Of a DNA stretch of 32,000 nt, positions 1 through 30,649 are shown piece by piece (position 1 is the stretch's first letter; each line of letters opens with the position of its first letter). Source of the stretch: an archaeon (GTDB taxonomy: Archaea > Iainarchaeota > Iainarchaeia > Iainarchaeales > JANQMZ01). The stretch is from positions 450,001 to 482,000 of the forward strand of contig JANQMZ010000007.1 of assembly GCA_028279805.1 (NCBI GenBank). Direction: 5' to 3'. A model generated the notes under the pieces. It searched no databases, was not told the DNA's origin, and was given only the letters and a program-made list of their open reading frames with translations. A program made the translations under genes and the position numbers.

Positions 1-282
1 CAAATAAGGCAGGGTTCTGATGCAATTAATGCAACTGTATGTCCAGAAATCAACCAGTACAACTTTTCCTTTCAAATCTGCAATTTTAATGTCAGGTTCA
101 GTGTTAATATAATTGTGAATTTTTTGTAATTCAGGAGCTTTTTGCAAACCGTTTTTTGTTTCAATAGGCGTAATCTCATTAATATTAAAATTTTTTGTTG
201 ATTGCAATGCGAATATTGCTAAAATTATTATTAACAATATTCCTCCTACCAAAAAAGGATTGTTTGGCTTTAAAATTTTCAT
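1..282 (-). CDS. TlpA/ResA/DipZ-C-like thioredoxin-fold redoxin with N-terminal membrane anchor (5' part only; gene runs off the window start)
   Basis: Not in the ORF track because it is truncated by the window edge. The reverse-strand ATG is at 282-280, 2 nt after the ccdA stop. Translation MKILKPNNPFLVGGILLIIILAIFALQS...KIADLKGKVVLVDFWTYSCINCIRTLPYL shows one TM helix followed by the redoxin signature DFW-x3-CxxC. Confidence 0.75.
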   Translation of the reverse strand, partial: MKILKPNNPFLVGGILLIIILAIFALQSTKNFNINEITPIETKNGLQKAPELQKIHNYINTEPDIKIADLKGKVVLVDFWTYSCINCIRTLPYL

Positions 283-284
283 AA

Positions 285-1001
285 TTATCCCAACAACATT
301 TGGTTAACAAAACCTAAATTGGCAACCAAAACCAATGTGTTTGTAAAAACCAAAATTCCCAGAATTATTAAAATTATTCCGAACACGATGTTAAACCATT
401 TCAAATGTTTTGAAAATTTTTGAATAAAGCCTGATGCTTTTGAAGTGAATGCTCCTACCAAAAGAAACGGAATTCCCAGACCCAAAGAATAGGACAGCAT
501 TAAAGGGAATGCTGCTTCAGGCTGGGTTGCCGCTAAAGTTAAAACTGCTCCTAAAACCGGCCCTACACAGGGAGTCCAGCCCACCGCAAACGCCGCACCG
601 AATAAAAAGGAACTTAGGTACTGGAAGCGTGTTTTTTTAACTGTTAATTTTTTGTCGCCTTGCAGTTGCGGAATTTTAATTACTCCTAATAAAAATAAGC
701 CGAATAATATGATGATTATTCCGCCAATCTGGCTTAAAGTGTTTCTTAAATCAAAAGCAATGCTTGACAAAACGCTTTGCAGTAAAACTCCTAAAATTGA
801 AAAAACCAATGAAAAGCCTAAAACAAAAAACACTGAACTTAAAAAAATTGTAATTCTTACACGGGGAGCGTTTTCCTGCAATTCTTTTGTTGTTGTTCCG
901 GCTAAAAAAGTTAAATATGCGGGAATTAATGGAAGAATGCAGGGACTTAAAAAAGATGCGATTCCTGCAAAAAATGCAATTATAATTGTAAACTCAGTCA
1001 A
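285..1001 (-). CDS. ccdA: Cytochrome c biogenesis/thiol-disulfide transporter CcdA (DsbD-family membrane core)
   Basis: 238-aa polytopic membrane protein. It carries the two CcdA/DsbD signature cysteines in Pro-rich TM contexts (FLSPCILPLIPAYL and GWTPCVGPVLGAVL). Confidence 0.85.
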   Translation of the reverse strand: MTEFTIIIAFFAGIASFLSPCILPLIPAYLTFLAGTTTKELQENAPRVRITIFLSSVFFVLGFSLVFSILGVLLQSVLSSIAFDLRNTLSQIGGIIIILFGLFLLGVIKIPQLQGDKKLTVKKTRFQYLSSFLFGAAFAVGWTPCVGPVLGAVLTLAATQPEAAFPLMLSYSLGLGIPFLLVGAFTSKASGFIQKFSKHLKWFNIVFGIILIILGILVFTNTLVLVANLGFVNQMLLG

Positions 1002-1003
1002 TT

Positions 1004-1510
1004 TTATTCACCCAATTCGTCCCTTGCAAAACTAATTTTATCCAGGATAACAGCTTTATTCCACTGGCCGATTCCTCTGACCAGAACATTTTCTTCCGAA
1101 TCAATAATAATGTGAGTGTGTTGTAATGAAACTCCAAATTTTCTTGCCAAATCTTCTTCATCTGCATCGGTTCTGGCATCCTTATAATTAACTTCTATTC
1201 CTGCAACATCTGTCGGAATTTCCTTAAAAGTTTCAACCAAAACAGGTTTTTGAACAACGCATGTAGGACACCAGTCTGCATGGAATTCTAAAAAAATAAT
1301 TTTATTATTCTGCAAAGCTTGTTGATAAGTTGTTTTAGAAAATTCTTTGTATTGGTTTCCGGTTAAATTTAAATTTTCATTTTCTTTTTCATTGGAATTT
1401 GATGACGGATTTGAATTTGAATTGTTTTGTGAAAAATCTGTTTCACTGACTGCCTGCGTGCAGCCGAACACAAAAATTATTGAAAGCAAAAGTATTGGCA
1501 ATGTTTTCAT
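1004..1510 (-). CDS. Secreted thioredoxin-like lipoprotein (WCPTC active site)
   Basis: Signal peptide with a lipobox-like LSIIFVFGC, then a low-complexity N/S linker and a thioredoxin fold with FHADWCPTC. Its start lies 2 nt from the upstream gene's stop and its stop lies 2 nt from the ccdA start. Confidence 0.8.
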   Translation of the reverse strand: MKTLPILLLSIIFVFGCTQAVSETDFSQNNSNSNPSSNSNEKENENLNLTGNQYKEFSKTTYQQALQNNKIIFLEFHADWCPTCVVQKPVLVETFKEIPTDVAGIEVNYKDARTDADEEDLARKFGVSLQHTHIIIDSEENVLVRGIGQWNKAVILDKISFARDELGE

Positions 1511-1511
1511 T

Positions 1512-1790
1512 TTATTCTCTCCATGTTACCCAGGCTAATGCAAGCAAGCCGGCTGTCTGTGCTCCGCTTACTAAAATTGCGTGCTGCATTGCTTCGGCTG
1601 TATAAAAATCAAGTTGTACAAAATGAAAATATGCTGCAAAAATGTTTTGCAATAATAACAAAAATGCAAAAACAATTAAACCTGAACAAAAAGTGCTTTT
1701 CATTTGCCTGTAATTCTGAATATAAACACTTAATAGGAATAACAACAATGCTACATTGATTAATTCCAATATTACCGGAAATTCCATCAT
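1512..1790 (-). CDS. Small integral membrane protein (about 3 TM helices), unknown function
   Basis: 92-aa hydrophobic ORF placed between the ArsR-like gene and the thioredoxin gene with tight spacing. I recognise no motif. Confidence 0.55.
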   Translation of the reverse strand: MMEFPVILELINVALLLFLLSVYIQNYRQMKSTFCSGLIVFAFLLLLQNIFAAYFHFVQLDFYTAEAMQHAILVSGAQTAGLLALAWVTWRE

Positions 1791-1810
1791 ATACCTCCTT
1801 TTTTAGTTTT

Positions 1811-2110
1811 TTAAAGCTTTTTCCCAATTTTTGACCATATTTCCTCAAAAGCTTTTTTTTCTTCATCCGTAAAAGCCGGAAAAAACAATTCACCATATTT
1901 GTCCATGCTGCTTGTAATCCAGTTGTTTTTTTTCAAAACATCAACATGGTGTAAAATTGTTTTATAGTCAACACCTGCTTTTTTAGCCAGCTGGTTTTTG
2001 TTTAAAGGCCTGTCCATTAAACAATGCATTATTTTGGCACGCATTGGCCCGCCCCGGCTGGCGCCAAGCAAATACCAAACATTTTTTTTAAAAAGCCTTA
2101 AAGGATCCAT
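1811..2110 (-). CDS. ArsR-family winged-helix transcriptional regulator
   Basis: 99 aa. LLGASRGGPMRAKIMHCLMDRPLNKNQLAKKAGVDYKTILHHVDVLKKNNWI matches the ArsR/SmtB-type HTH layout. It is the first gene of the minus-strand redox operon. Confidence 0.7.
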   Translation of the reverse strand: MDPLRLFKKNVWYLLGASRGGPMRAKIMHCLMDRPLNKNQLAKKAGVDYKTILHHVDVLKKNNWITSSMDKYGELFFPAFTDEEKKAFEEIWSKIGKKL

Positions 2111-2237
2111 CTTTAAACCAATAGAACAGCTAAAATTAAAAAAGAATAGAACAAAAAATACGAAGCAAAATACTGCAATTGTCGAAAAAAGGCAATCTTT
2201 TTATTCTCTGAATCATTGATTATTAAGGTGGAGAAAA

Positions 2238-2369
2238 ATGCTGTTAAGAGAATCTGCAACATGCCCGGAATGCGCAAAAAGGGCTGAAGTGATTGTGACA
2301 GAGGAAGGTTTAATCTTAAACCATTTACAGCACAATGAAACTTGTTCAAAATTTATTGAACAAGAATAA
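2238..2369 (+). CDS. Putative 43-aa zinc-ribbon-like small protein (below the ORF-track length cutoff)
   Basis: ATG at 2238 is preceded by a strong SD (AAGGTGGA, 2225-2232). Translation: MLLRESATCPECAKRAEVIVTEEGLILNHLQHNETCSKFIEQE, with CPEC plus a distal H-x2-H-x3-C. It competes with the antisense 78-aa ORF 2113..2349, so it is uncertain. Confidence 0.4.
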   Translation: MLLRESATCPECAKRAEVIVTEEGLILNHLQHNETCSKFIEQE

Positions 2370-2456
2370 TGCTGTAAAAAAAATCCTTGTTTGAAAAAAC
2401 AAGCATCAGCATTGCCTTACAAATGATTTTAAGCTTTTTCTAATCTGATTTGTTAA

Positions 2457-3011
2457 ATGGTTTTAACATTTTCAAGCTATAAAGTTTTACAAAAAAATTC
2501 TTCCGCTCCCGACTTTACTTTGCCGGGTGCTGACGGAAAAAATTATTCTCTGGAAGATTTAAAAGGAAAAAAAGGTTTGCTCATAATTTTCATGTGCAAT
2601 CACTGCCCTTATGTTCAGCCTAAAATGAAATATTTTTCAGAATTAAGAAAAAATTATCCTGAATTGCAAATAGTTGGAATTAGTGCAAACGATGTTGAAC
2701 AATATCCTGAAGATAGTTTTGAAAAAATGAAAGAATATTCTCAAAAATATGATTTTGGTTTTCCTTACTTGTTTGATGAATCACAGGAAACAGCAAAAAA
2801 TTACGGGGCTGTTTGTACTCCGGATCCTTTTTTGTTTAACGAAAATTTAGAATTGGTTTATCATGGCAGGTTTGATGATTCTCCGCAGGGTTCACATGAA
2901 GAAGCTAATACAAGTGAAATGGAAGATGCAATAAAACAATTATTGGCAGGGGAAGAAATTACGGTTGAAACAAAACCATCACAGGGATGCAATATTAAAT
3001 GGAGTGAATGA
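2457..3011 (+). CDS. Thioredoxin-fold protein, AhpC/TSA 'PRX-like' family with CxxC
   Basis: 184 aa. APDFTLPGADGKNYSLEDLKGKKGLLIIFMCNHCPYV is the typical redoxin N-terminus with a CNHCPYV active-site motif. Confidence 0.8.
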   Translation: MVLTFSSYKVLQKNSSAPDFTLPGADGKNYSLEDLKGKKGLLIIFMCNHCPYVQPKMKYFSELRKNYPELQIVGISANDVEQYPEDSFEKMKEYSQKYDFGFPYLFDESQETAKNYGAVCTPDPFLFNENLELVYHGRFDDSPQGSHEEANTSEMEDAIKQLLAGEEITVETKPSQGCNIKWSE

Positions 3012-3012
3012 A

Positions 3013-3285
3013 ATGAAAAAAAGTACAGGGCAGGAGAATGTGTCAGTTGTTCCTGTTACCCGCCGTATAAACGCAAAAGCGTTTGAATTGCTTGAACAGC
3101 ATCCGGAGGGTTTAAGCTGGACGGAATTGCGTTCAAAAATTGAAGAATCAGATAGTAATTTTCATCCGAAAACGGTTAACGGGTGTGTCTGGAAACTTGT
3201 TGAAAAATTTCCTGACGAAATTTACAAACCGTCAAAAGGAATTTTTCGTTTGGTAAAATTTGAAGATAAAATTAAAGTGAGGTGA
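3013..3285 (+). CDS. Hypothetical protein, possible winged-helix domain
   Basis: I prefer ATG 3013 (SD GGAGTGA at 3001-3007, 1 nt after the upstream stop) over the track's 2965 start. The segment LLEQHPEGLSWTELRSKIE...GIFRLV resembles a wHTH, but the assignment is weak. Confidence 0.5.
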   Translation: MKKSTGQENVSVVPVTRRINAKAFELLEQHPEGLSWTELRSKIEESDSNFHPKTVNGCVWKLVEKFPDEIYKPSKGIFRLVKFEDKIKVR

Positions 3286-3289
3286 AAAA

Positions 3290-3694
3290 ATGAGAAAATT
3301 TTTGTTAGCAGGACTGTTGGGCGGACTGGCAATTTTTATTGTTTCAATGGCATTGTCATTTGTTGTCCAGGCAATTGCACCATATGATATTTTCAGCTTG
3401 GCTGGAATGCGTTCAATTGATGATCCTTTAATGATGTTTTTCTTTTTGGTTGGCTGGGTTTATGCTTTTCCAATGGCATACGCTTATTCACACTTTAAAG
3501 GAAGCATGCAGGGAACATTTGTTCAGAAAGGAATCAGATTTGGTTTTCTTGTATGGTTATTGACTGCTGTTCCGACAACTTTCATTATTTTTACAACAAT
3601 GACTTATCCGTTAGGTTTTCATTTGGACAGCATTGTTGGCGGACTAATCTGGTTAATGGCTGGATCAATAGTTATTGCAAAATTCATGGATTGA
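3290..3694 (+). CDS. Integral membrane protein (about 4 TM helices), unknown function
   Basis: 134-aa hydrophobic ORF. SD GTGAGGTGA lies just upstream and the start is 4 nt after the previous stop. Confidence 0.6.
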   Translation: MRKFLLAGLLGGLAIFIVSMALSFVVQAIAPYDIFSLAGMRSIDDPLMMFFFLVGWVYAFPMAYAYSHFKGSMQGTFVQKGIRFGFLVWLLTAVPTTFIIFTTMTYPLGFHLDSIVGGLIWLMAGSIVIAKFMD

Positions 3695-3699
3695 AAAGC

Positions 3700-3903
3700 T
3701 TAAGGCTTTTCAATTTCTTTTCTTTCATGAGTTTTTCCTTCATACATGTATAATTTGTCTGTTTCTTCAGTTTTTGTTTTTTGATGAGAACCATCACAAA
3801 ATGGTTGGTTTGCACTTAAACCACACATGCAATTCCATTTTCCGACATCTTCTTGTGTTATTTCTCTCGGACCATGAGCAACTCTTTCAACTAATCTTGG
3901 CAT
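3700..3903 (-). CDS. CDGSH-type iron-sulfur domain protein
   Basis: CMCGLSANQPFCDGSH matches the CDGSH signature C-x-C-x2-S-x3-P-x-C-D-G-S-H exactly. Confidence 0.85.
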   Translation of the reverse strand: MPRLVERVAHGPREITQEDVGKWNCMCGLSANQPFCDGSHQKTKTEETDKLYMYEGKTHERKEIEKP

Positions 3904-3965: not shown

Positions 3966-4943
3966 TTAAAGGGGAATAAAAGTCAGTTTTAAGTTTCCCT
4001 TAAATAATTCATTTGCATAACTTACTCCCATTTGAATTTTTTGATGCATTGTCAAATTTTCAGATTCCTTGGTTCTTAGAAATGCTTCTGAACCAAAATC
4101 AATATAGGGATTAATAAAAATAGGATTAACAATTTCTTCAAGTTCGGCGCCTGCCAAAAACTCGTATTTTATTACACCATGTTTTCCAACAACTCCAAAA
4201 GTATTCATTCCGTAGTCTCTAAAAAAGTGAAAACTAGTTCTAATATCATTTTCACTTGGAAACATTCCTCCAAAAGAATACAAAAATCCAATAAATTCTT
4301 CCCCGTAAGCTCTTGTTAATTCGATTTGTTTTTGTGCTTCTTTTATCCGTTTATTTAGAATGCGTTTTTTCCTTTCATTTTTTTCAACAGATAATTGTTT
4401 TTCCCTTCTTTGAATTTGTTGACGACGCAGTCTTATAAAACTTCCAGGTTTTTCATGAGAATATTCAAAATGTGTATGATAAAGACCAAGAAACCTGGGT
4501 TCTTTTACAATTATTTCAGACAAAATACCTATTCGATAATAATCCAAACCAACTCCAATTGCCCCCTGTTTATTCTTACCAACTTCATACCATTTCCCCT
4601 GATTTAAGTCGACAAACCACGCTTCTTCAACAAGATAAGGAAATTTTGGCAATTGTTCCCAGATTAATCTTTCACCGTCAGCAAGATTTGCTTTAAACAT
4701 ACGCATTCTTTCATCAGCAATATTAGGATTGAACTCTGGACCTGGTCTCTCTAAAAAGTGACTTTCTGAAAAATGTGAAATCATTTCTTGCTCCCTGAAA
4801 TGATGACTTGCTTTTCCGGTATAATAGCCCCCAAATATTCCTGCTAGTATGGAGCCAATCGCGATAGCCGTTCTTTTAGCATCTGATGAAACATTTGGTT
4901 GACTTTTTGGTTTTGCTCTTCTTTGGGCAGGTTTTTTTTCCAT
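3966..4943 (-). CDS. Membrane-anchored protein, paralog A; possible JAMM/MPN-like metalloprotease with a split motif
   Basis: 325 aa. It has a basic N-terminus plus one TM helix (TAIAIGSILAGIFGGYY). Conserved blocks are GERLIWEQL..VEEAWF..GKWYEVG, GLYHTHFE, a charged helical insert, PSENDI, and the C-terminal KLTFIPL. It aligns along its full length with 5362..6324. Confidence 0.6.
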   Translation of the reverse strand: MEKKPAQRRAKPKSQPNVSSDAKRTAIAIGSILAGIFGGYYTGKASHHFREQEMISHFSESHFLERPGPEFNPNIADERMRMFKANLADGERLIWEQLPKFPYLVEEAWFVDLNQGKWYEVGKNKQGAIGVGLDYYRIGILSEIIVKEPRFLGLYHTHFEYSHEKPGSFIRLRRQQIQRREKQLSVEKNERKKRILNKRIKEAQKQIELTRAYGEEFIGFLYSFGGMFPSENDIRTSFHFFRDYGMNTFGVVGKHGVIKYEFLAGAELEEIVNPIFINPYIDFGSEAFLRTKESENLTMHQKIQMGVSYANELFKGNLKLTFIPL

Positions 4944-4973
4944 AAAAAAAGAATTGTTTCAGAATATTTAATG
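4944..4973 (-). promoter_or_regulatory. Promoter of paralog A (TATA-like TTAAATATT about 24 nt upstream of the ATG; likely leaderless mRNA)
   Basis: Read on the minus strand: CATTAAATATTCTGAAACAATTCTTTTTTT-ATG. It is near-identical to the region upstream of paralog B. Confidence 0.5.
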
Positions 4974-5023
4974 TTTGTTATCAAAAGCAAAACTTTAATA
5001 TAAACAAAATAAGTAAGTGTTTG

Positions 5024-5350
5024 ATGCAATTAAGCCAAAAAAAATGTGTTGCCTGCGAGGGAGGAATTCCTCCAATGGAAAAAGAAAAAGCGGAAGACTT
5101 TTTGAAACAAGTTCAGGAATGGAGTTTGGCTGAAAATAATAAAAAAATCAGCAAAAATTTTGAATTTAGAAATTTTGAAGAAGCAATGGTTTTCATTAAC
5201 CTTGTTGCGGCTTTAGCAGAAGAGGAACAGCATCATCCGGACATATTTGTTTCATACAATAAAGTAAGAATTGATATCTGGACACATAAAATCAATGGCT
5301 TGCATGAAAATGATTTTATTTTAGCTGCAAAAATTGACGAATTACAATAA
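5024..5350 (+). CDS. Pterin-4-alpha-carbinolamine dehydratase (PCD/DCoH family)
   Basis: 108 aa from ATG 5024. It has C-x2-C near the N-terminus, F.NF.EAM.F.N.VA..AE...HHPD and a W.TH motif typical of PCD. A TATA-like CTTTAATATAAAC sits about 25 nt upstream, suggesting a leaderless mRNA. Confidence 0.85.
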   Translation: MQLSQKKCVACEGGIPPMEKEKAEDFLKQVQEWSLAENNKKISKNFEFRNFEEAMVFINLVAALAEEEQHHPDIFVSYNKVRIDIWTHKINGLHENDFILAAKIDELQ

Positions 5351-5361
5351 TGATTTAATTT

Positions 5362-6324
5362 TTATTTAAGCGGTATGAAAGTTAGCTTTATTTTTCCTTT
5401 TAATAATTTGTTAAAATACTTTATCGCGGCTGAGATTCTCTGACGGGGTGTTGCGTTTTGAATATGCGCAGATTGAAGAAATGATTCAGGGATTGAATTA
5501 AGATGAACAGTATCAACATATTCTTCTTTTGTAATTCCCTCTAAAACTTCAATTCTTGTAACACCATACTCGTTTATATTTCCAAAATGAGCGATTCCAA
5601 ATCTTTCATGAAACTCACCTGCGCTTACAATATCATTAGGGCTTGGGATTGCCACGGAGATAAAGCCAAAAAATTCAGCAAAAGATTCGCCATATGTTTT
5701 AGTTAATCTGAGCATTTCTTTTACCTCTTCCATTCTACGAATTAGTCCTTGCCTTTCAGTTTGACTAGTTACACTGGACAAATCAGTTTCATGTTTTCTA
5801 AAAATTTCATTAAGTTCTTTAGCCAGTTCACGCACAGTAGATGGTTCCTCAAAGCCTTTTGGATGTATATGATAAAGTCTTGCTTCATGTGATTCTTCCA
5901 ATATTAGCGAAGTTAATATGCTCATGTGAAGACTGGAATAATGAATGCGTCCTTTTTCTTCAGGCTCATTGTGACCCACCTCAAACCATTTTCCGGTTGC
6001 TGAGTCGAAAAACCATGCTTCTTCAACACCAAAAGGCATGTTTGACAATTCCTTCCAGATTAACCTTTCGCCTTTCAGAAGATCCGCATGAAAAATATGC
6101 CCGGTTGTATTATCAAAATTAACTCTGGGTCGTTCTTCAATAAAATATTCTCTTCCTCCAATATAATTGGAATGTTGAATCGAGGACTCAGATTTTATAA
6201 AAGGCCTTATTGAAAAAAAACCAGCAAGCAAGCCACCAACAACAATTGCTGTTTTTTTAACATTTTTTGAAAAATTTAATTGCCTTTTTGGTCTTATTCT
6301 TCTTCCGGTAGATTTTCTTGTCAT
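5362..6324 (-). CDS. Membrane-anchored protein, paralog B; possible JAMM/MPN-like metalloprotease with a split motif
   Basis: 320 aa with the same architecture as 3966..4943: basic N-terminus plus TM (TAIVVGGLLAGFF), GERLIWKEL..VEEAWF..GKWFEVG, RLYHIHPKG, a charged insert, PSPNDI, and C-terminal KLTFIPLK. Confidence 0.6.
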   Translation of the reverse strand: MTRKSTGRRIRPKRQLNFSKNVKKTAIVVGGLLAGFFSIRPFIKSESSIQHSNYIGGREYFIEERPRVNFDNTTGHIFHADLLKGERLIWKELSNMPFGVEEAWFFDSATGKWFEVGHNEPEEKGRIHYSSLHMSILTSLILEESHEARLYHIHPKGFEEPSTVRELAKELNEIFRKHETDLSSVTSQTERQGLIRRMEEVKEMLRLTKTYGESFAEFFGFISVAIPSPNDIVSAGEFHERFGIAHFGNINEYGVTRIEVLEGITKEEYVDTVHLNSIPESFLQSAHIQNATPRQRISAAIKYFNKLLKGKIKLTFIPLK

Positions 6325-6355
6325 AAAAAAAAGAATTATTTCAAAATATTTAAGG
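6325..6355 (-). promoter_or_regulatory. Promoter of paralog B (TATA-like TTAAATATT about 25 nt upstream of the ATG)
   Basis: Read on the minus strand: CCTTAAATATTTTGAAATAATTCTTTTTTTT-ATG. It differs from 4944-4973 by only 3 substitutions and a 1-nt A-run length change. Confidence 0.5.
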
Positions 6356-6372
6356 ATTATGATTTATTGTAA

Positions 6373-7305
6373 TTATAATAATGTTTTGACTTTTTCAGCC
6401 AAATGTTTTGCAGTGAAACCATATTTTTCAAACAATTCATCAGGTTTTCCGGATTCAGCAAAAGAATTATTCATGCCAATTCTTGCAAAATTAACATTTA
6501 AATTTTTTTCAGCTAAAACCTCAGCAACAGCAGAGCCAAGGCCTCCATTAATCTGATGGTCTTCAGCTGTCAAAATTGCTTTTGTTTCCTTTGAAGCATT
6601 AACAACTGTTTTTTTATCCAGAGGTTTGATTGTGTGCATGTTTATTACACGCAGGGAAATGTTTTCTTTTTTTAATAATTCGGCTGCTTCTAAAGCAATT
6701 GAAACCATTACGCCACAGGCAATAATTGTTGCATCATTGCCATTTTTTAACACATTGGCTTTTCCGAATTCAAATTTATAATTGTCAGAATGCAGAACAG
6801 GAACCTTGTTTCTGCCTGTTCTCAGATAACAAGGCTTGTCAAAATCCAGTAAAAATTCTGTTGCTTTTTCAGCTTCAACTGAATCACTTGCAACAATAAC
6901 ATTCATGTTTGGCAATGCCCTCATAATTGAAATGTCTTCAGTCATTTGTGCTGAAGGGCCGTCTTCACCAACATGAACACCTGAATGAGAGCCAACCAGT
7001 TTAACAGGAACATTTCCATAACAAATGCTTTGGCGAATTGGTTCAAATGCCCGTGATAAAAAAATTGCAAAAGTTGAAGCAAAAACTTTTTTTCCTGTTA
7101 AAGCTAAACCGACCGCTTCTCCTATCATTGCCTGTTCTGAAATGCCTGAATAAAAATGCCTTTCAGGGTCAACTTCTTTTGCCTTAATTGATTTGGTGCT
7201 CATAGCCAGGTCAGCATCCAAAAAAACAACATTTGGGTCTTTTTTTGCAATATTTATTACGCCTCTGCCATAACCTTCCCTGATTGCTTCCATTTTTGTT
7301 TCCAT
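6373..7305 (-). CDS. Transketolase, C-terminal (pyrimidine-binding) subunit
   Basis: 310 aa with transketolase Pyr and C-terminal domain motifs (ISEQAMIGEAVGLA, GSHSGVHVGEDGPSAQ, EDHQINGGLGS). It abuts the N-terminal subunit gene. Confidence 0.9.
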   Translation of the reverse strand: METKMEAIREGYGRGVINIAKKDPNVVFLDADLAMSTKSIKAKEVDPERHFYSGISEQAMIGEAVGLALTGKKVFASTFAIFLSRAFEPIRQSICYGNVPVKLVGSHSGVHVGEDGPSAQMTEDISIMRALPNMNVIVASDSVEAEKATEFLLDFDKPCYLRTGRNKVPVLHSDNYKFEFGKANVLKNGNDATIIACGVMVSIALEAAELLKKENISLRVINMHTIKPLDKKTVVNASKETKAILTAEDHQINGGLGSAVAEVLAEKNLNVNFARIGMNNSFAESGKPDELFEKYGFTAKHLAEKVKTLL

Positions 7306-8130
7306 TCATCCACCTAATTCTTTTAACGCTTTTTTTAATTGCTCTTCATCCAAGGCTTTTCCGTGCCACTGCGGGTCGTTTTCCATAAAGGAAACGCCTT
7401 TGCCTTTTATTGTGTTGGCAATAATTGCAAAAGGTTTATCGGAATTTGAAGCCTGTTCAAATGCTTCAAAAATTTCTTCAAAATTATGGCCGTCAATTTC
7501 AATAACATTCCAGTTAAATGATTTGATTTTTTCATCCAAGGGATCAATTTCCAATGTTTCCGCAACGTAACCATCATTCTGGCATTTGTTTCTGTCAATG
7601 ATTGCAATTAAATTGTTTAATTTTTTAAAACCGGCAAACATAAAAGATTCCCAAATCATTCCTTCCTGCATTTCTCCGTCACCCAGCATTACAAAAGTTT
7701 TGAATGATTTGTTGTCAAGTTTTGCCGATAAAGCCATTCCGCTTCCGATAGCCAAACCCTGGCCCAGAGAACCGAAAGACATTTCAATTCCTGGCGTTGT
7801 CCTGTGAACATGCCCTGAAAATCTTGAATTGGTTTGCCTGAACGAATTGATTAATTCTTCTTCGGGAAACAATCCCCGTTTTGATAAAACAGCGTACAAG
7901 CCCGGAGAACAATGTCCTTTGCTTAACAAAAACCTGTCCCTGTTTTCATCTTTTAAATTATCAGAATCCAAATTTAAAGTGTTAAAATATAGGGCTGTTA
8001 ATAATTCGGTTGCACTCATTGAGCCTCCGGGGTGCCCTGAACCAGCTTTAGAAGTCATTTTAAGTATCAAAATGCGTATTTGCCTTGCCAATTCTTTTAA
8101 TTCTTCGGCATTTTCAGTTTTGTGTTTCAC
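7306..8130 (-). CDS. Transketolase, N-terminal (TPP-binding) subunit
   Basis: 274 aa with SGHPGGSMS, LSKGHCSPGLYA and GDGEMQEG TPP-binding motifs. The split two-gene form is common in archaea. Confidence 0.9.
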   Translation of the reverse strand: MKHKTENAEELKELARQIRILILKMTSKAGSGHPGGSMSATELLTALYFNTLNLDSDNLKDENRDRFLLSKGHCSPGLYAVLSKRGLFPEEELINSFRQTNSRFSGHVHRTTPGIEMSFGSLGQGLAIGSGMALSAKLDNKSFKTFVMLGDGEMQEGMIWESFMFAGFKKLNNLIAIIDRNKCQNDGYVAETLEIDPLDEKIKSFNWNVIEIDGHNFEEIFEAFEQASNSDKPFAIIANTIKGKGVSFMENDPQWHGKALDEEQLKKALKELGG

Positions 8131-8256
8131 AAGAATAACCCCTGAAAAAAGAAATATTGAAACGTTTTAAAAGCGTTATCAGGTTTGAATTAACACAAAT
8201 TGTTGGACAAATTTGTTTCCAAAAAGAAAATAAAATGTTGCACTTGTTCTGTGATA

Positions 8257-8883
8257 ATGGTCAGAAAAAAAATTATTCAGAAATACAAAGAATTGTATGA
8301 GGAAGGAAAGGACAGGGAAAATTCTTTGGGACAATATAGTGATTTTTTTTCAAACTTTTTTGAAAACATTTCCTTAAGAGAATTAATTGGGTGGATGGTT
8401 AAAGAAAAAAGCAAAATAAAAGTTTTGGACGTTGGTTGCGGCGATGCAGGATTTTTAAATGATTTGAAAAAACAGTTTGGTGAAAAAGTTTTTACAAGCG
8501 GAATTGATTTGATTGATTTTACAGGAACAGATGAAAAAATAATTGGAGATGCATTAAATGCAGAATGGCCTAAAGAATTTGACTTGATTGTTTCTTTCAG
8601 GACATTACATGAAATTGGCAATTCTGAAAAAATTTTAACAAAAGCACTTGACTCTTTGAAAAAAAACGGAATGGCTGTGTTAAGCTTCAGAATGCAGGAA
8701 TTTGTAAACGGGCAGCTTGATTTTCTGGGTGAAATGAAGCAAGGGGATGCAAGGTTTTTGCAGCAGATTGGCGAAAGAGCTTATTTTAAAAAAGCACAGA
8801 TTGAAAGCGTTGAATCGTTCAAAAAAGAAAAAGGCATAAAATTTTTGAACGGAGTAACACTCATAATGGAAAAAACAGGTTAA
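8257..8883 (+). CDS. Class I SAM-dependent methyltransferase
   Basis: Motif I is VLDVGCGDAGF. I prefer the first in-frame ATG (8257) over the track's TTG at 8200. The substrate is unknown. Confidence 0.7.
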   Translation: MVRKKIIQKYKELYEEGKDRENSLGQYSDFFSNFFENISLRELIGWMVKEKSKIKVLDVGCGDAGFLNDLKKQFGEKVFTSGIDLIDFTGTDEKIIGDALNAEWPKEFDLIVSFRTLHEIGNSEKILTKALDSLKKNGMAVLSFRMQEFVNGQLDFLGEMKQGDARFLQQIGERAYFKKAQIESVESFKKEKGIKFLNGVTLIMEKTG

Positions 8884-8950: not shown

Positions 8951-9006
8951 CAATCTTGTAATCAGAGGCTTAAAAGCTTCGAATACTGTCGCAGGGGCGA
9001 TTTTTG

Positions 9007-9417
9007 ATGAGTTTGATTTCCTTAACATTCGGAACAGAACAATATCCTGGTTTGAACGCAAAAGGCTCAAATACAAGCGTTACAAAGCCAAATGAAGTTA
9101 ATTTTAAGGGAAAAAAAGGGGTTTTTGAGGTTAAAAAAGTTGACAAATTTTTCGGAACAAAGGAAATTTGCCTGATGGGCAAACTTGTTGAAGGGGTTGT
9201 CGGGCCCGGAATGCAGGCAGAAATTGGTGACAAAAAAATAAAAATTGAAACAGTTGAATCAAAGTATGGTGAAAGGCCTGTTCACAGGGAAGGAACAAAT
9301 GCTTTGATAATGGTTGGCGGGGCAGAACATTCGGATTTTGAAGGAAACGAAACAATTGAATTCAAAAAAGAGTACGCTGTAAAAATCAGAAAAAAAGGAA
9401 AAGTGATAATTTGCTGA
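9007..9417 (+). CDS. Hypothetical protein; the C-terminal part resembles an EF-Tu domain-II-type beta-barrel
   Basis: The pattern CLMGKLVEGVVGPGMQAEIGDKKIKIETVE....V.REGTNALIMVGG resembles translation-factor domain II. This is a by-eye resemblance only. ATG 9007 is preferred over TTG 9004. Confidence 0.4.
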   Translation: MSLISLTFGTEQYPGLNAKGSNTSVTKPNEVNFKGKKGVFEVKKVDKFFGTKEICLMGKLVEGVVGPGMQAEIGDKKIKIETVESKYGERPVHREGTNALIMVGGAEHSDFEGNETIEFKKEYAVKIRKKGKVIIC

Positions 9418-11571: not shown

Positions 11572-12225
11572 ATGAGGCAAAAAAGGGTTTTAGCGTTATT
11601 GGCATTAATTTTAATAAGTACGATTTTTCCAACAGGAACTGCATTAAATTTTTGGGAAAATGATATTCCTGAGAATCCGGGTTTGCCGGTGCCAATGAGT
11701 GTTGAAAACCATTATCCAGATAATCTGATTCCAGAAAACCCAGGACTGCCTGAATTGCTTAACTCTGACGTTGATCTTGAACATTGTGATGCGCTGGAAA
11801 GAGGAAGAGACAAGTTAATATGTCTAATAAGAGAAGAGGCGTGGAAAGAATATCACGAAAAAGTGGAAGAATGCAGTAAAATAGAGGATGAAGACGAAAA
11901 ACAAAATTGTTTGGATGATGCCAGAACAGATCTTCTTTACGGTCTTGGCATGGCGGCTTGTTTTGAAAAGTCTGGTGATGAAGGTCAAAAATGCAGAGAC
12001 CGGGTAGAAAAAGAATATCAGGCTGAAAAAAACTATAACAACGCAAAAGCGGGGTGCAGGGCAAAATATGAAAAAGGTTCAGAGGAAAGAAAACAATGCC
12101 TGTTGAAAGCAAGAAATGATTATGTCTATGCAAAAGCAATTATTGAATGTGAAGACAAATATTCTGAAAATCGGGAAAAATTAGAAGAATGTAAGGATGC
12201 TGCACGGGACAGATGGCTAAGTTAA
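11572..12225 (+). CDS. Secreted protein with 2x (D/N)(D/L)IPENPGLP motif and five Cys-pair helical repeats
   Basis: Signal peptide MRQKRVLALLALILISTIFPTGTA. The SD-like GGGGGT lies upstream. ENDIPENPGLP and DNLIPENPGLPELLN are followed by 5 repeats of C-x10-13-C-x2-3-[AV]-[RKE]-x-[DE]-[YLW]. It has 10 Cys in total. Confidence 0.75.
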   Translation: MRQKRVLALLALILISTIFPTGTALNFWENDIPENPGLPVPMSVENHYPDNLIPENPGLPELLNSDVDLEHCDALERGRDKLICLIREEAWKEYHEKVEECSKIEDEDEKQNCLDDARTDLLYGLGMAACFEKSGDEGQKCRDRVEKEYQAEKNYNNAKAGCRAKYEKGSEERKQCLLKARNDYVYAKAIIECEDKYSENREKLEECKDAARDRWLS

Positions 12226-12263
12226 TAATTTTAAAATTATATTAAAAAAAGGAGGAATTGTTA

Positions 12264-12758
12264 ATGAAACGAAAAGGAGTTTTGGCAGCATTTTTAATGC
12301 TTATTTTCATAAGCTCATTTTTTATAACAGGAAACGCGTCCTTAACTGTCGGAAAAACAAAAAACATTGACTTTGAAGACAATTTGATTCCGGAGAATCC
12401 CCAGTTACCACAACTGCTTAACACATCAAACGGCTTGGTAATAGACATTGAGGATAATTTAATTCCCGAAAATCCAGGGCAACCACAAGTGTTGGATCAG
12501 AATTATACTCCGTCACAACAAAAAATTCTTAATGAATATCTTAGAAAAAAAGCAGCTTGTAAAAAAATAAAAGACGAGGACAAAAGAGAAAGATGCATTT
12601 ATGAAGCAAATATGTGGTTCGCTTACAAGATGGAAGTAGACAGCTGCAAGGTAAGATTCAAACACGATGCTGAAAAAAGACAGCAATGCATTGACAAAGC
12701 AAAAAGAGACTATGAAAGATGCCTGGAAAGTCATAAAGGCTGTCCCTGGGCAGGATAA
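12264..12758 (+). CDS. Secreted protein, paralog of 11572..12225 (2x ID-x-EDNLIPENPxxPQ-x-L motif and Cys-pair repeats)
   Basis: ATG 12264 is preferred because the SD GGAGGA (12251-12256) sits 7 nt upstream. Signal peptide MKRKGVLAAFLMLIFISSFFITGNA. It has two 19-aa motif copies and two Cys-pair repeats plus a C-terminal CLESHKGC. Confidence 0.75.
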   Translation: MKRKGVLAAFLMLIFISSFFITGNASLTVGKTKNIDFEDNLIPENPQLPQLLNTSNGLVIDIEDNLIPENPGQPQVLDQNYTPSQQKILNEYLRKKAACKKIKDEDKRERCIYEANMWFAYKMEVDSCKVRFKHDAEKRQQCIDKAKRDYERCLESHKGCPWAG

Positions 12759-26102: not shown

Positions 26103-26153
26103 AATTTTAACCAAATTCTTTAATTACCTTTATGTGTAATTATACCGGTGTTT

Positions 26154-26591
26154 ATGAAATATTATTTTGGCTCGGATCACGCCGGCTTGGAGTTAAAAAA
26201 AGCTTTAATTGAACATTTAAAACAAAAAGGCCTGAAAACAGAAGACTTGGGAACGCATTCTCAGGACAGCTGTGATTATCCGGATTATGCAATTGCAGTT
26301 GCGGAAAAAGTTGCAAAAGAAAATGCTTTGGGAATTCTTGTATGCGGCACAGGCATAGGAATTTGCATGAGTGCAAACAAAGTTGATGGAATAAGAGCAG
26401 CAACAATTCATAATGAATTCACCGGGCAAATGGCAAAAGAACATAACAATGCAAACATTATTTGTTTAGGCGGGCGCGTGGTTGATGAACAAACTGCAAA
26501 AAAAGCTGTTGACGGCTGGCTTGAAGCAAAGTTTGGTGAAGGAAGGCATACTGGCAGGGTTAAAAAAATAATGGACATTGAAAAACACTGA
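26154..26591 (+). CDS. rpiB: Ribose-5-phosphate isomerase B (RpiB/LacAB family)
   Basis: GSDHAGLELK....L........DLG and LVCGTGIGICMSANKVDGIRAA motifs. ATG 26154 is preferred over the track's GTG at 26148. Confidence 0.85.
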   Translation: MKYYFGSDHAGLELKKALIEHLKQKGLKTEDLGTHSQDSCDYPDYAIAVAEKVAKENALGILVCGTGIGICMSANKVDGIRAATIHNEFTGQMAKEHNNANIICLGGRVVDEQTAKKAVDGWLEAKFGEGRHTGRVKKIMDIEKH

Positions 26592-29761: not shown

Positions 29762-30649
29762 ATGATGCGCAAAATTCTCATAATTTTTTTGTTGCTTGTT
29801 TTAACACTAAATGTTAATGCAAGCGGAACAAGAGCTGATTGTGAAAACATTTCCATTAACGTGAGCAATGCAAGGCTGGATGAAAAATCAAGCATGCTTA
29901 AAACTTTTTCAATTGAAAACAAGGATTCTGAAAGATTTTTCATTGAAAGAATTAATGCTTTTGATTACAATTCTTCAATAAAAGTTGAGGGAAAAGGCTG
30001 GGAAAGAATTGTTCTTCCCGGAGATGAAAGTTTTTTTAATGTGCAGATTAAAAGTTTTAATGTTAAAAAAGATCAGGAAATTGAAGGTTTTGTTGAGGTT
30101 AGAGGGCATTTTTTGAGCGGCACAAAATGTTCAATCGAGGATATTGGAACCCAAAATTTTAATGTTTTTGTGAAAAATGAGGATGAAGCTTTTGCAGAAG
30201 AAATTGAGTTAGAGCAGGAAAAAATTGAAGAATGTAAGGGATTTGAATTAATAATTCCTGAAAATGTTGAAAATGTAAACGAAATTCCTTTTACTGTTAA
30301 AAATATCACAAATGACAGAATTCAAGTAAGGCTTTCAGGAGCAAACCTGGGAATTGAAACAAAATATTTTTCAATTCCGGCTCAGACTACGGTTGAAAAA
30401 AGTGTTAATGTAATGCCTTTTGAACAAAAAACATGGCTTGTTTTTAACAGCAATGTTAACGGTTGTTTTGTTAAATCAAAAAATGTTCAGATTTTTACAG
30501 ATAATCCTTTTGAAAAACCTCAGACAGTGGCTGAACAGGCACCCGGTTTTCAGATAACTTCACAGCTTGGAAATGCCGTCGGATTAATAACACTGGGCGG
30601 ATTTAATGCCTGGAATTCTATTGCTAATTTTTTGGGTTTTTCAGGTTAA
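29762..30649 (+). CDS. Secreted hypothetical protein (signal peptide, two beta-rich modules, hydrophobic Gly-rich C-terminus)
   Basis: Signal peptide MMRKILIIFLLLVLTLNVNASG. I recognise no catalytic motif. A TATA-like ATATTTATAT sits about 35 nt upstream. Confidence 0.65.
   Translation: MMRKILIIFLLLVLTLNVNASGTRADCENISINVSNARLDEKSSMLKTFSIENKDSERFFIERINAFDYNSSIKVEGKGWERIVLPGDESFFNVQIKSFNVKKDQEIEGFVEVRGHFLSGTKCSIEDIGTQNFNVFVKNEDEAFAEEIELEQEKIEECKGFELIIPENVENVNEIPFTVKNITNDRIQVRLSGANLGIETKYFSIPAQTTVEKSVNVMPFEQKTWLVFNSNVNGCFVKSKNVQIFTDNPFEKPQTVAEQAPGFQITSQLGNAVGLITLGGFNAWNSIANFLGFSG

Follow-up and report, generated by a model that had tools for sequence, protein, structure and literature searches.

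A pair of putatively exported archaeal proteins with a JAMM-type residue set split by a long, predicted helical insert

JAMM/MPN+ enzymes are known as cytoplasmic isopeptidases with a rigid HxH-x7-SxxD motif. Here we describe two neighboring genes from an archaeon of the Iainarchaeota (assembly GCA_028279805.1, contig JANQMZ010000007.1, positions 450,001 to 482,000; this stretch of 32 kb is referred to as the window), the products of which carry the residues of this motif in the expected order, with the two halves of the motif set far apart by a charged segment. The two proteins, paralogs A and B, are candidates for divergent members of the JAB/MPN+ superfamily, and we set out below what speaks for this assignment, what speaks against it, and which other explanations have to be considered.

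Results

A paralogous gene pair and its only known relative

The genes encoding paralogs A and B lie on the same strand and flank a gene for pterin-4a-carbinolamine dehydratase on the opposite strand (Table 1). A preliminary description, made by reading the DNA, had taken the two products to be paralogous over their full length, and this is what we find: BLASTP aligns them end-to-end with 34% identity and 52% positives (E = 4e-57), a likeness far beyond chance, and both open reading frames (ORFs) and the intervening dehydratase gene are where they had been placed. The shared blocks listed there (GERLIW, VEEAWF, GKW[YF]EVG, LYH[TI]H, YGE[ES]F, PSxNDI, FG....GV and KG..KLTFIPL) are all present in the pairwise alignment; the only correction concerns the C-terminal block, which had been given as starting with LKG and does so in the 320-aa protein, the 325-aa protein having FKG.

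With a profile of the two sequences, HMMER was run exhaustively over 1.84 billion cluster representatives and recovered one extra relative (E = 2.4e-11, 25% identical). This protein of 290 aa (P0003; MBU2496963.1) is annotated as “hypothetical protein [Nanoarchaeota archaeon],” the taxon now being Nanobdellota in the kingdom Nanobdellati. Word-indexed searches with paralog A, with P0003 and with a three-sequence profile found nothing beyond the three proteins, and the exact sequences of the pair were confined to one contig of 853 kb. Contig collections from genomes, metagenomes and viruses, scanned in translation, returned either the contig of P0003 itself or nothing, and tblastn against phage genomes found no relatives. 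The family is almost an orphan, with three members in public data, and the database searches agree with the preliminary view that the architecture is not that of a described family. The gene for P0003 lies between a HAD hydrolase gene and gyrA, neighbors that differ from those in the window. The nearby gyrB (positions 5120-8314 of the same locus, on the metagenome-assembled Nanoarchaeota contig JAHJTU010000064.1) carries an intein, seen as an Intein_splicing domain inside GyrB.

Table 1. Positions of the features discussed (window coordinates unless stated otherwise; model numbering + 44 = paralog A numbering).
Feature	Position	Strand	Remarks
Paralog A gene (P0001, 325 aa)	3966..4943	-	Basic n-region, H domain, linker, predicted JAB-like domain with 70-aa insert
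Paralog B gene (P0002, 320 aa)	5362..6324	-	Architecture as paralog A, insert of 72 aa
Pterin-4a-carbinolamine dehydratase gene	5021..5350	+	Between the paralogs; Pfam Pterin_4a, E = 1.7e-33
Paralog A EExW (E106, E107)	4617..4628	-	Candidate general-base Glu, start of core strand b2; on the RadC Glu in global hhalign
Paralog B EExW (E101, E102)	6013..6024	-	Invariant 3/3
Paralog A YHTH (H156, H158)	4470..4481	-	Candidate metal ligands, end of core strand
Paralog B YHIH (H152, H154)	5863..5874	-	Invariant 3/3
Paralog A insert, residues 159-228	4260..4469	-	70 aa, 37% charged
Paralog B insert, residues 155-226	5647..5862	-	72 aa, 33% charged
Paralog A PSENDI (S230, D233)	4242..4259	-	Candidate SxxD, helix N-terminus
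Paralog B PSPNDI (S228, D231)	5629..5646	-	Invariant 3/3
Paralog A putative H domain, residues 25-43	4815..4871	-	TAIAIGSILAGIFGGYYTG, after a 24-aa n-region of net charge +6
Paralog B putative H domain, residues 25-39	6208..6252	-	TAIVVGGLLAGFFSI, after a 24-aa n-region of net charge +10
Arg-Arg pair R8-R9, paralog A	4917-4922	-	Codons 8-9
Arg-Arg pair R8-R9, paralog B	6298-6303	-	Codons 8-9
Upstream element, paralog A	4944..4972	-	ATTAAATATTCTGAAACAATTCTTTTTTT, abuts the ATG
Upstream element, paralog B	6326..6354	-	CTTAAATATTTTGAAATAATTCTTTTTTT, one T separates its end from the ATG
Model elements, first part	b1 38-40; a1 43-56; b2 63-68; b3 73-79; a2 94-103		Model numbering; b2 starts at EE
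Model elements, second part	b4 108-113; insert helices 124-142, 146-169, 171-183		Model numbering; b4 ends with YHTH
Model elements, third part	a3 187-200; b5 204-208; b6 212-218; b7 274-280		Model numbering; a3 starts with SENDI; b5 and b6 form a hairpin; helices precede b7
CcdA/DsbD_TM	285-1001	-	Redox cluster beside paralog A
Thioredoxin	1004-1510	-	Redox cluster beside paralog A
AhpC/TSA peroxiredoxin	2457-3011	+	Redox cluster beside paralog A
CDGSH iron-sulfur protein, 67 aa	3700-3903	-	62 bp downstream of paralog A, same strand
Split transketolase	6373-8130	-	Separate genes for the N- and C-terminal halves
RpiB	26148-26591	+
PKD/Ig-like protein, 397 aa	28494-29687	+	Two PKD/Ig-like domains (E = 1.9e-18)
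Orphan ORFs	2965-3285, 3290-3694, 9004-9417, 11572-12225, 12258-12758, 29762-30649		Six ORFs of 105-295 aa

A JAMM-type residue set with an insert between its halves

The alignment of all three proteins (25–36% identity) has 41 invariant columns, and the invariant polar residues are, in paralog A numbering, E106-E107-x-W109, K117..E120-V-G122, Y155-H156-x-H158 and P229-S230-x-x-D233-I234, with H156 and H158 being the only invariant histidines. The catalytic residue set of JAMM enzymes, Glu, HxH and SxxD in this order, had been proposed from the pair; it is present in each of the three members, P0003 having EExW, YHxH(P) and PSxxDI. The surroundings are like those in JAMM enzymes as well, with an aromatic residue before HxH, a proline before the serine, an isoleucine after the aspartate and, in two of the three proteins, a proline after HxH. 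The glutamate and the HxH are about 50 residues apart, equal to the distance in RadC, for which the reference pattern from 16 domains is HNHPSGC..PSxxD; one phage RadC reads PSENDIR, as paralog A does. M23 peptidases (HxxxD/HxH), M15, HExxH zincins, amidohydrolases, metallophosphoesterases and cupins were compared by their motifs and rejected, given that there are only two invariant histidines and that order and secondary structure do not fit.

What sets the family apart is the distance from HxH to the serine, which is 71 residues in paralog A and 73 in paralog B (66–73 across the three members; 70 and 72 to the proline of PSxxDI), as compared with 7 in both PSMD14 and 16 phage or prophage RadC domains. 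The PSMD14 reference sequence (MPN domain, WYHSHP......SGVDI) matches PDB chains at 404 bits. A long segment between the half-motifs had been recognized earlier, with a length of 65–70 residues that proves to be an underestimate for the pair, and its highly charged, probably helical character is borne out: charged residues make up 33–37% of the insert against 24–25% of the remainder of each protein, and the AlphaFold model of paralog A predicts three helices here, a long antiparallel pair followed by the conserved YGExF..F helix. The sign of the charge varies, the insert being basic in paralog A (17 K/R vs 9 D/E), with a net charge of -2 in paralog B and -1 in P0003.

N-termini resembling export signals

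Both paralogs have the basic N-terminus first described, a region of 24 residues, followed by an uncharged, Gly-rich stretch of 19 residues in paralog A and only 15 in paralog B and then by near-neutral sequence. This stretch had been read as a single transmembrane helix; its hydrophobic nature stands, while the helix itself is less certain at these lengths, and the N-termini look more like an export signal peptide or signal anchor than a firm transmembrane segment. Archaeal export signals have a tripartite arrangement of charge and H domain (PMC6098224), and the match of the N-termini to this arrangement argues for a location of the globular part outside the cytoplasm. The N-terminus of P0003 (gene at positions 1125-1997 of its locus; residues 14-24) combines a short n-region rich in lysine with an H domain of 19 residues and the sequence ILSC, which fits a lipobox, so that P0003 may be a lipid-anchored archaeal lipoprotein instead of a signal-anchored protein.

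The basic n-regions of the pair include an invariant Arg-Arg pair, R8-R9, together with P12 and K13. A twin-arginine translocation (Tat) signal was considered and judged unlikely, because the arginines lie some 15 residues before the H domain, too far away to match the canonical Tat pattern. The absence of a [KR][GA] cleavage motif led us to reject a class III (pilin-like) signal.

A shared upstream element

An element of ~29 nt, CTTAAATATTYTGAAAYAATTCTTTTTTT, lies upstream of both start codons. It is ~93% identical between the two genes, as against 54% nucleotide identity in the coding alignment, and the window has only these two matches to it at ≤3 mismatches, with 0 expected by chance. It contains the TATA-like sequence TTAAATAT, which ends ~20 nt before the start codon. 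From this we infer that each paralog has its own promoter of a common type and a leaderless or near-leaderless mRNA, and the near-identity of the element suggests that paralogs A and B are co-regulated. P0003 is without the element.

Predicted structure

AlphaFold2 with the two sequences gave a model with a mean predicted local distance difference test (pLDDT) score of 53; with residues 45-325 of paralog A, a three-sequence multiple alignment and no templates the score rose to 65.5, with a predicted template modeling (pTM) score of 0.66. The order of elements in this second model is b1-a1-b2-b3-a2-b4(HxH)-[3 helices]-a3(SxxD)-b5-b6-...-b7. In it, a strand of a beta-hairpin begins with the glutamate, the next core strand closes with HxH, and the helix after that begins with SxxD. 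The JAB/deaminase-like fold is described as S1-H1-S2-H2-S3-H3-S4-S5, in which S4 and S5 form a hairpin (Iyer et al., PMC3239186); the order of elements predicted for paralog A corresponds to that of this fold. A predicted helical extension of ~55 residues precedes the last strand.

In Foldseek searches with the model, RadC (2qlc) is listed from the PDB at ranks 7, 19 and 39, in an alignment that spans the insert (TMt 0.40), and the deaminase-fold protein 7c3t is listed too. From BFVD, five proteins named “RadC” and one named “MPN domain” are among the top 22 (best E = 0.015, Foldseek probability 0.75). The poorer first model again had unnamed viral proteins as its top matches in BFVD, with RadC down at rank 27. 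The top BFVD neighbors of both models include A0A3G5A0S4 (Harvfovirus), A0A481YR62, G8DDC3, A0A8S5MAK6 and A0A8S5P082 (“minor capsid protein”), all ahead of RadC at E = 5e-4 to 6e-2 and TM-scores of 0.3–0.4; depending on the fold of these viral proteins, the JAB assignment could be confirmed or weakened.

Profile comparisons with and without the insert

We deleted the insert in silico, restoring the x7 spacing, a procedure that is circular by design. With these spliced constructs, JAB-clan models were the best or near-best matches for all three proteins in four libraries, in every case below thresholds. In Pfam, paralog A matched Prok-JAB (E = 0.028) and JAB (E = 0.042), and RadC was matched by paralog B (E = 0.0078) and P0003 (E = 0.01), the RadC score of 16.6 bits being under the cut-off of 22.1. 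PADLOC gave JAB/Cap3-type models (E = 0.009–0.05), PHROGs gave phrog_5556 “tail protein” (E = 0.0067, 0.016 and 0.21), and one of only two sequence matches in the PDB was the archaeal Rpn11-like protein 6fjv (E = 1.3). Matches of the unspliced profile to NEMO (PDB, E = 0.02) were rejected as homologs, since they reflect the coiled-coil composition of the insert.

Two further comparisons were made with an alignment of 16 RadC sequences. The spliced profile scored 25.8 against it, as compared with 11.4 ± 1.9 for 200 column shuffles, the highest of which reached 20.9, and in global hhalign the EE of the family falls on the conserved Glu of RadC without large gaps. The second comparison avoids the circularity of the splice by using each half separately: the best alignment of the N-terminal half places YHxH on the HNH of RadC and beats 95 of 100 column shuffles, and that of the C-terminal half places PSxxD on PSxxD and beats 97 of 100.

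Discussion

A divergent JAB/MPN+ domain outside the cell?

Given the ordered residues, their placement in the model and the spliced-profile matches, we give about even credence to the pair being exported, insert-bearing and highly divergent JAB/MPN+ (JAMM-type) metallohydrolases. This retains part of what the preliminary description had proposed, namely a JAMM metalloprotease, as the JAMM-like positions of E, HxH and SxxD and the recurrence of RadC and MPN among the fold neighbors emerged from the follow-up; statistical significance, of the native profiles and of the fold matches alike, did not. We do not file the proteins under Pfam JAB, Prok-JAB or RadC, and consider that they probably derive from, or work like, the JAB superfamily.

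Full-length paralogy, residue conservation, the wide motif spacing, N-termini of the export type and the common upstream element are observed; what follows under this reading, from fold and metal binding through catalysis to substrate and dimer, is inferred. The exported proteins would be membrane-tethered or secreted, with the domain displayed on the outer face of the membrane by way of the basic n-region and short H domain (in P0003, the lipobox-like ILSC), and the globular part would be a metal-dependent hydrolase domain of the JAB/MPN+ type. In paralog A, H156, H158 and D233 would hold Zn2+; E106 or E107, with which the neighboring strand begins, would be the general base that activates the zinc-bound water, and S230 would help to stabilize the tetrahedral intermediate as an oxyanion helper. 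The 7-residue loop that leads from the HxH strand to the SxxD helix in known JAMM enzymes would be expanded to a helical hairpin plus the YGExF..F helix, ~70 residues in all, and the hairpin would emerge beside the active-site cleft, there to serve as a lid or as an arm for selecting substrates or for dimerization. By analogy with Ins-1 and Ins-2 of AMSH, CSN5 and Rpn11 (PMC4822132), the insert probably controls substrate access or oligomerization. As a substrate, an extended stretch of peptide or isopeptide in a protein of the cell surface or host envelope would be the most likely candidate. The full residue set is retained in each paralog and their promoter element is nearly identical, so that the two may function jointly, perhaps as a heterodimer.

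A bolder version of the proposal would place JAMM/MPN+ enzymes outside the cytoplasm for the first time: expressed together at the cell surface, two MPN+ proteins, in which a coiled-coil arm divides the motif and gates or targets the active site, would cut peptide or isopeptide links in the archaeon’s own or its host’s envelope and so aid attachment or access to nutrients. We consider this version rather unlikely, and to name the host S-layer or pseudomurein-type isopeptide cross-links as a target is purely speculative.

Evidence against, and a surface protein of another fold

A number of results weigh against a JAB domain. A Pfam search for JAB or Prok-JAB had been suggested as a check of the JAMM assignment and gave no support: no native sequence reaches a family threshold, native sequences and profiles have no meaningful match in Pfam, NCBIfam, the PDB, PHROG or PADLOC, and JAB-clan models do not match them even at E ≤ 10. 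The N- and C-terminal halves alone likewise match nothing in Pfam, and hhalign probabilities are 1–18%, the 18% being reached against RadC even when spliced. When the 17-residue spliced motif was kept and its flanks were shuffled, two of nine decoys still matched Prok-JAB at ~11–12.6 bits, compared with 14–16.6 bits for the real constructs; the sub-threshold JAB signal is therefore due for the most part to the very motif on which the splice was based, with a few bits contributed by the real flanks. The H-x-H-x(7)-S-x-x-D spacing that defines JAMM is absent from the family, and “invariant” is a weak statistic with three sequences only. In the model, the core strands have a pLDDT of only 45–70. 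Foldseek found nothing significant in the PDB (best E = 0.26), and at the head of the BFVD list stand unnamed proteins of giant viruses and phages together with a “minor capsid protein” (E = 5e-4 to 5e-3, TM-scores 0.3–0.4). Known JAB peptidases act on the tails of ubiquitin-like (Ubl) proteins in the cytoplasm (PMC3239186), and genes for Ubl, E1-like or MoaD/ThiS proteins were found neither among the Pfam-annotated genes of the window nor adjoining the gene for P0003.

The same lack of a significant profile or fold match, the unnamed viral proteins and “minor capsid proteins” at the head of the structural neighbors, the motif-driven signal and the three-sequence basis of the conservation all favor a different explanation, which we see as possible and nonetheless doubtful: a lineage-specific surface protein of the DPANN archaea with another fold and a structural, adhesive or metal-binding role, in which the JAMM pattern is coincidental and the helical segment serves as a stalk of coiled-coil type or as a module for interactions. 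Orphan surface proteins are numerous in DPANN genomes, and in the PDB the unspliced profile matches only coiled coils, NEMO among them, by way of the insert. A coincidence sits less well with the nature of the residues that survive at 25% identity, a hydrolase-type polar set in a JAMM-like secondary-structure context; with both halves of the motif separately finding their RadC counterparts; and with the strong over-representation of RadC and MPN among the weak fold matches in two libraries. In addition, none of the other metalloenzyme motifs considered fits two invariant histidines with S, D and E in this order.

RadC-type chemistry or a cytoplasmic location

If the fold is of the JAB type, the activity could still be of the RadC kind, that is, a membrane-tethered extracellular nuclease or nucleic-acid processor by which a DPANN cell auxotrophic for nucleotides would scavenge DNA or RNA. 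We think this improbable. RadC is the best sub-threshold Pfam match of two of the three spliced proteins and the recurring named neighbor in fold searches, the Glu–HxH spacing is the same, and the insert of paralog A is strongly basic; that charge is not conserved in paralog B or P0003, however, and the family is without HPRE before helix 2, HNHPSG, and a helix-hairpin-helix (HhH) or other DNA-binding partner domain. For RadC-type JAB domains themselves a nuclease role is predicted, not proven (PMC3239186), and RadC itself is not known to have nuclease activity.

A cytoplasmic JAB domain, either held at the inner face of the membrane (N-out/C-in) or soluble because the hydrophobic stretch fails to insert, and acting on Ubl-type or other conjugates as ordinary JAMM enzymes do, is very improbable: it would accord with the intracellular or virion-associated location of all characterized JAB enzymes (PMC3239186, PMC4822132) and with the shortness and Gly-richness of the H domains, but the strongly basic n-regions followed by near-neutral sequence point to an N-in/C-out orientation or a cleavable signal (PMC6098224), P0003 has the classical Lys-rich n-region, H domain and lipobox-like ILSC, and there are no Ubl or E1 genes nearby in the window.

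Genomic surroundings

The window (G+C ~34%) is a core region of the archaeal chromosome, and its setting on a contig of 853 kb is in keeping with a DPANN archaeon of small genome. Its genes include a split transketolase, SUI1, ThiI, MscS, the rpoH/B''/B'/A'/A'' block, L30e, a NusA-KH protein, S12, S7, EF-2, EF-1alpha, S10, RpiB, archease, RtcB and L3. There is no sign of a mobile element or defense island in the window, and PADLOC has no matches to the native sequences. We found no evidence for a functional tie between the paralogs and the pterin dehydratase, the gene for which is absent beside P0003; a functional link with this gene, with the transketolase or with the CDGSH gene was rejected, because the window and the P0003 locus have no gene in common.

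Other observations concern the neighbors themselves. A redox cluster beside paralog A extends from 285 to 3903, in which CcdA and thioredoxin suggest an extracytoplasmic thiol-reduction pathway. Encoded as separate halves, the transketolase shares the strand of paralog B, and its genes end 48 bp upstream of the latter; RpiB, 20 kb away, is likewise a non-oxidative pentose-phosphate gene in this reduced genome. A protein with two PKD/Ig-like domains, likely a surface protein, is encoded among translation genes. Six ORFs either lack a match in Pfam at E ≤ 0.05 or have faint ones only (WH_Rok, 0.038; DUF5409, 0.015) and are further orphans of the genome; one of these, at 3290-3694 (134 aa), looks by eye like a multi-pass membrane protein.

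Significance and comparison with known systems

The impact of the proposal is limited by a family of three known members, an uninformative gene context and a key structural claim that is a prediction. If it is true, a JAB domain has been recruited to the outside of the cell, and DPANN archaea, whose interactions with host envelopes are poorly understood, have a concrete candidate surface hydrolase that can be put to the test. We found no description of a secreted or membrane-bound JAMM protein, of JAMM in DPANN archaea or of an insert inside the JAMM motif in a literature that was covered in part, which amounts to absence of evidence.

The closest comparison is with the stand-alone prokaryotic JAMM/MPN+ proteins (Prok-JAB PF14464 and JAB PF01398; AfJAMM, HvJAMM1/PfJAMM1 and the Rpn11-like protein of Caldiarchaeum, 6fjv). 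These share the order E...[aromatic]-H-x-H-P...S-x-x-D-[ILV], the predicted secondary-structure context and order of elements, and the sub-threshold matches that appear once the insert is removed. The family described here differs in the HxH–Ser distance of 66–73 residues instead of 7, in the lack of a significant sequence match, and in its C-terminal helical extension of ~55 residues; known members of the stand-alone group are cytoplasmic, whereas the pair has a putative N-terminal export signal, and the context of Ubl, small archaeal modifier protein (SAMP), MoaD or E1 genes is missing.

With the RadC-like JAB proteins (PF04002; 2qlc) the family has in common the Glu–HxH distance of ~50 residues, the second half-motif PSxxD and the status of RadC as the most frequent named Foldseek neighbor. 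The alignment with 16 RadC domains shows that the signatures HPRE and HNHPSG and the N-terminal HhH module are lacking here; only the HxH and PSxxD halves are common to both, and the present family is insert-bearing and putatively exported. The tail-tip MPN domains of phages (phrog_5556 “tail protein”), which we take to be of the lambda K type, and the Cap3 JAB domain of the cyclic-oligonucleotide-based antiphage signaling system (CBASS; from PADLOC) are connected to it by sub-threshold, motif-centered matches of the spliced constructs. They are JAB domains outside the classical Ubl/proteasome setting, and, unlike theirs, the genomic setting here is a core chromosome without phage or defense-island context.

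The eukaryotic JAMM deubiquitinases (AMSH, CSN5, Rpn11 and BRCC36; MEROPS M67) share with the family the principle of a JAMM core that bears specificity inserts close to the catalytic cleft, which govern substrate access there (PMC4822132). They, too, occur as paired MPN paralogs, which are MPN+/MPN- there and both MPN+-like here, and they belong to a ubiquitin-like system, of which the window has none, whereas our proteins are putatively exported. Their inserts Ins-1 and Ins-2 lie outside HxH-x7-SxxD, whereas the insert here splits the motif itself. If the reading of the pair as JAB/MPN+ domains is true, the loop inside the metal-binding motif tolerates a helical module of 70 residues. This would add a third site of insertion to those of Ins-1 and Ins-2, in an architecture that would surprise a JAMM specialist.

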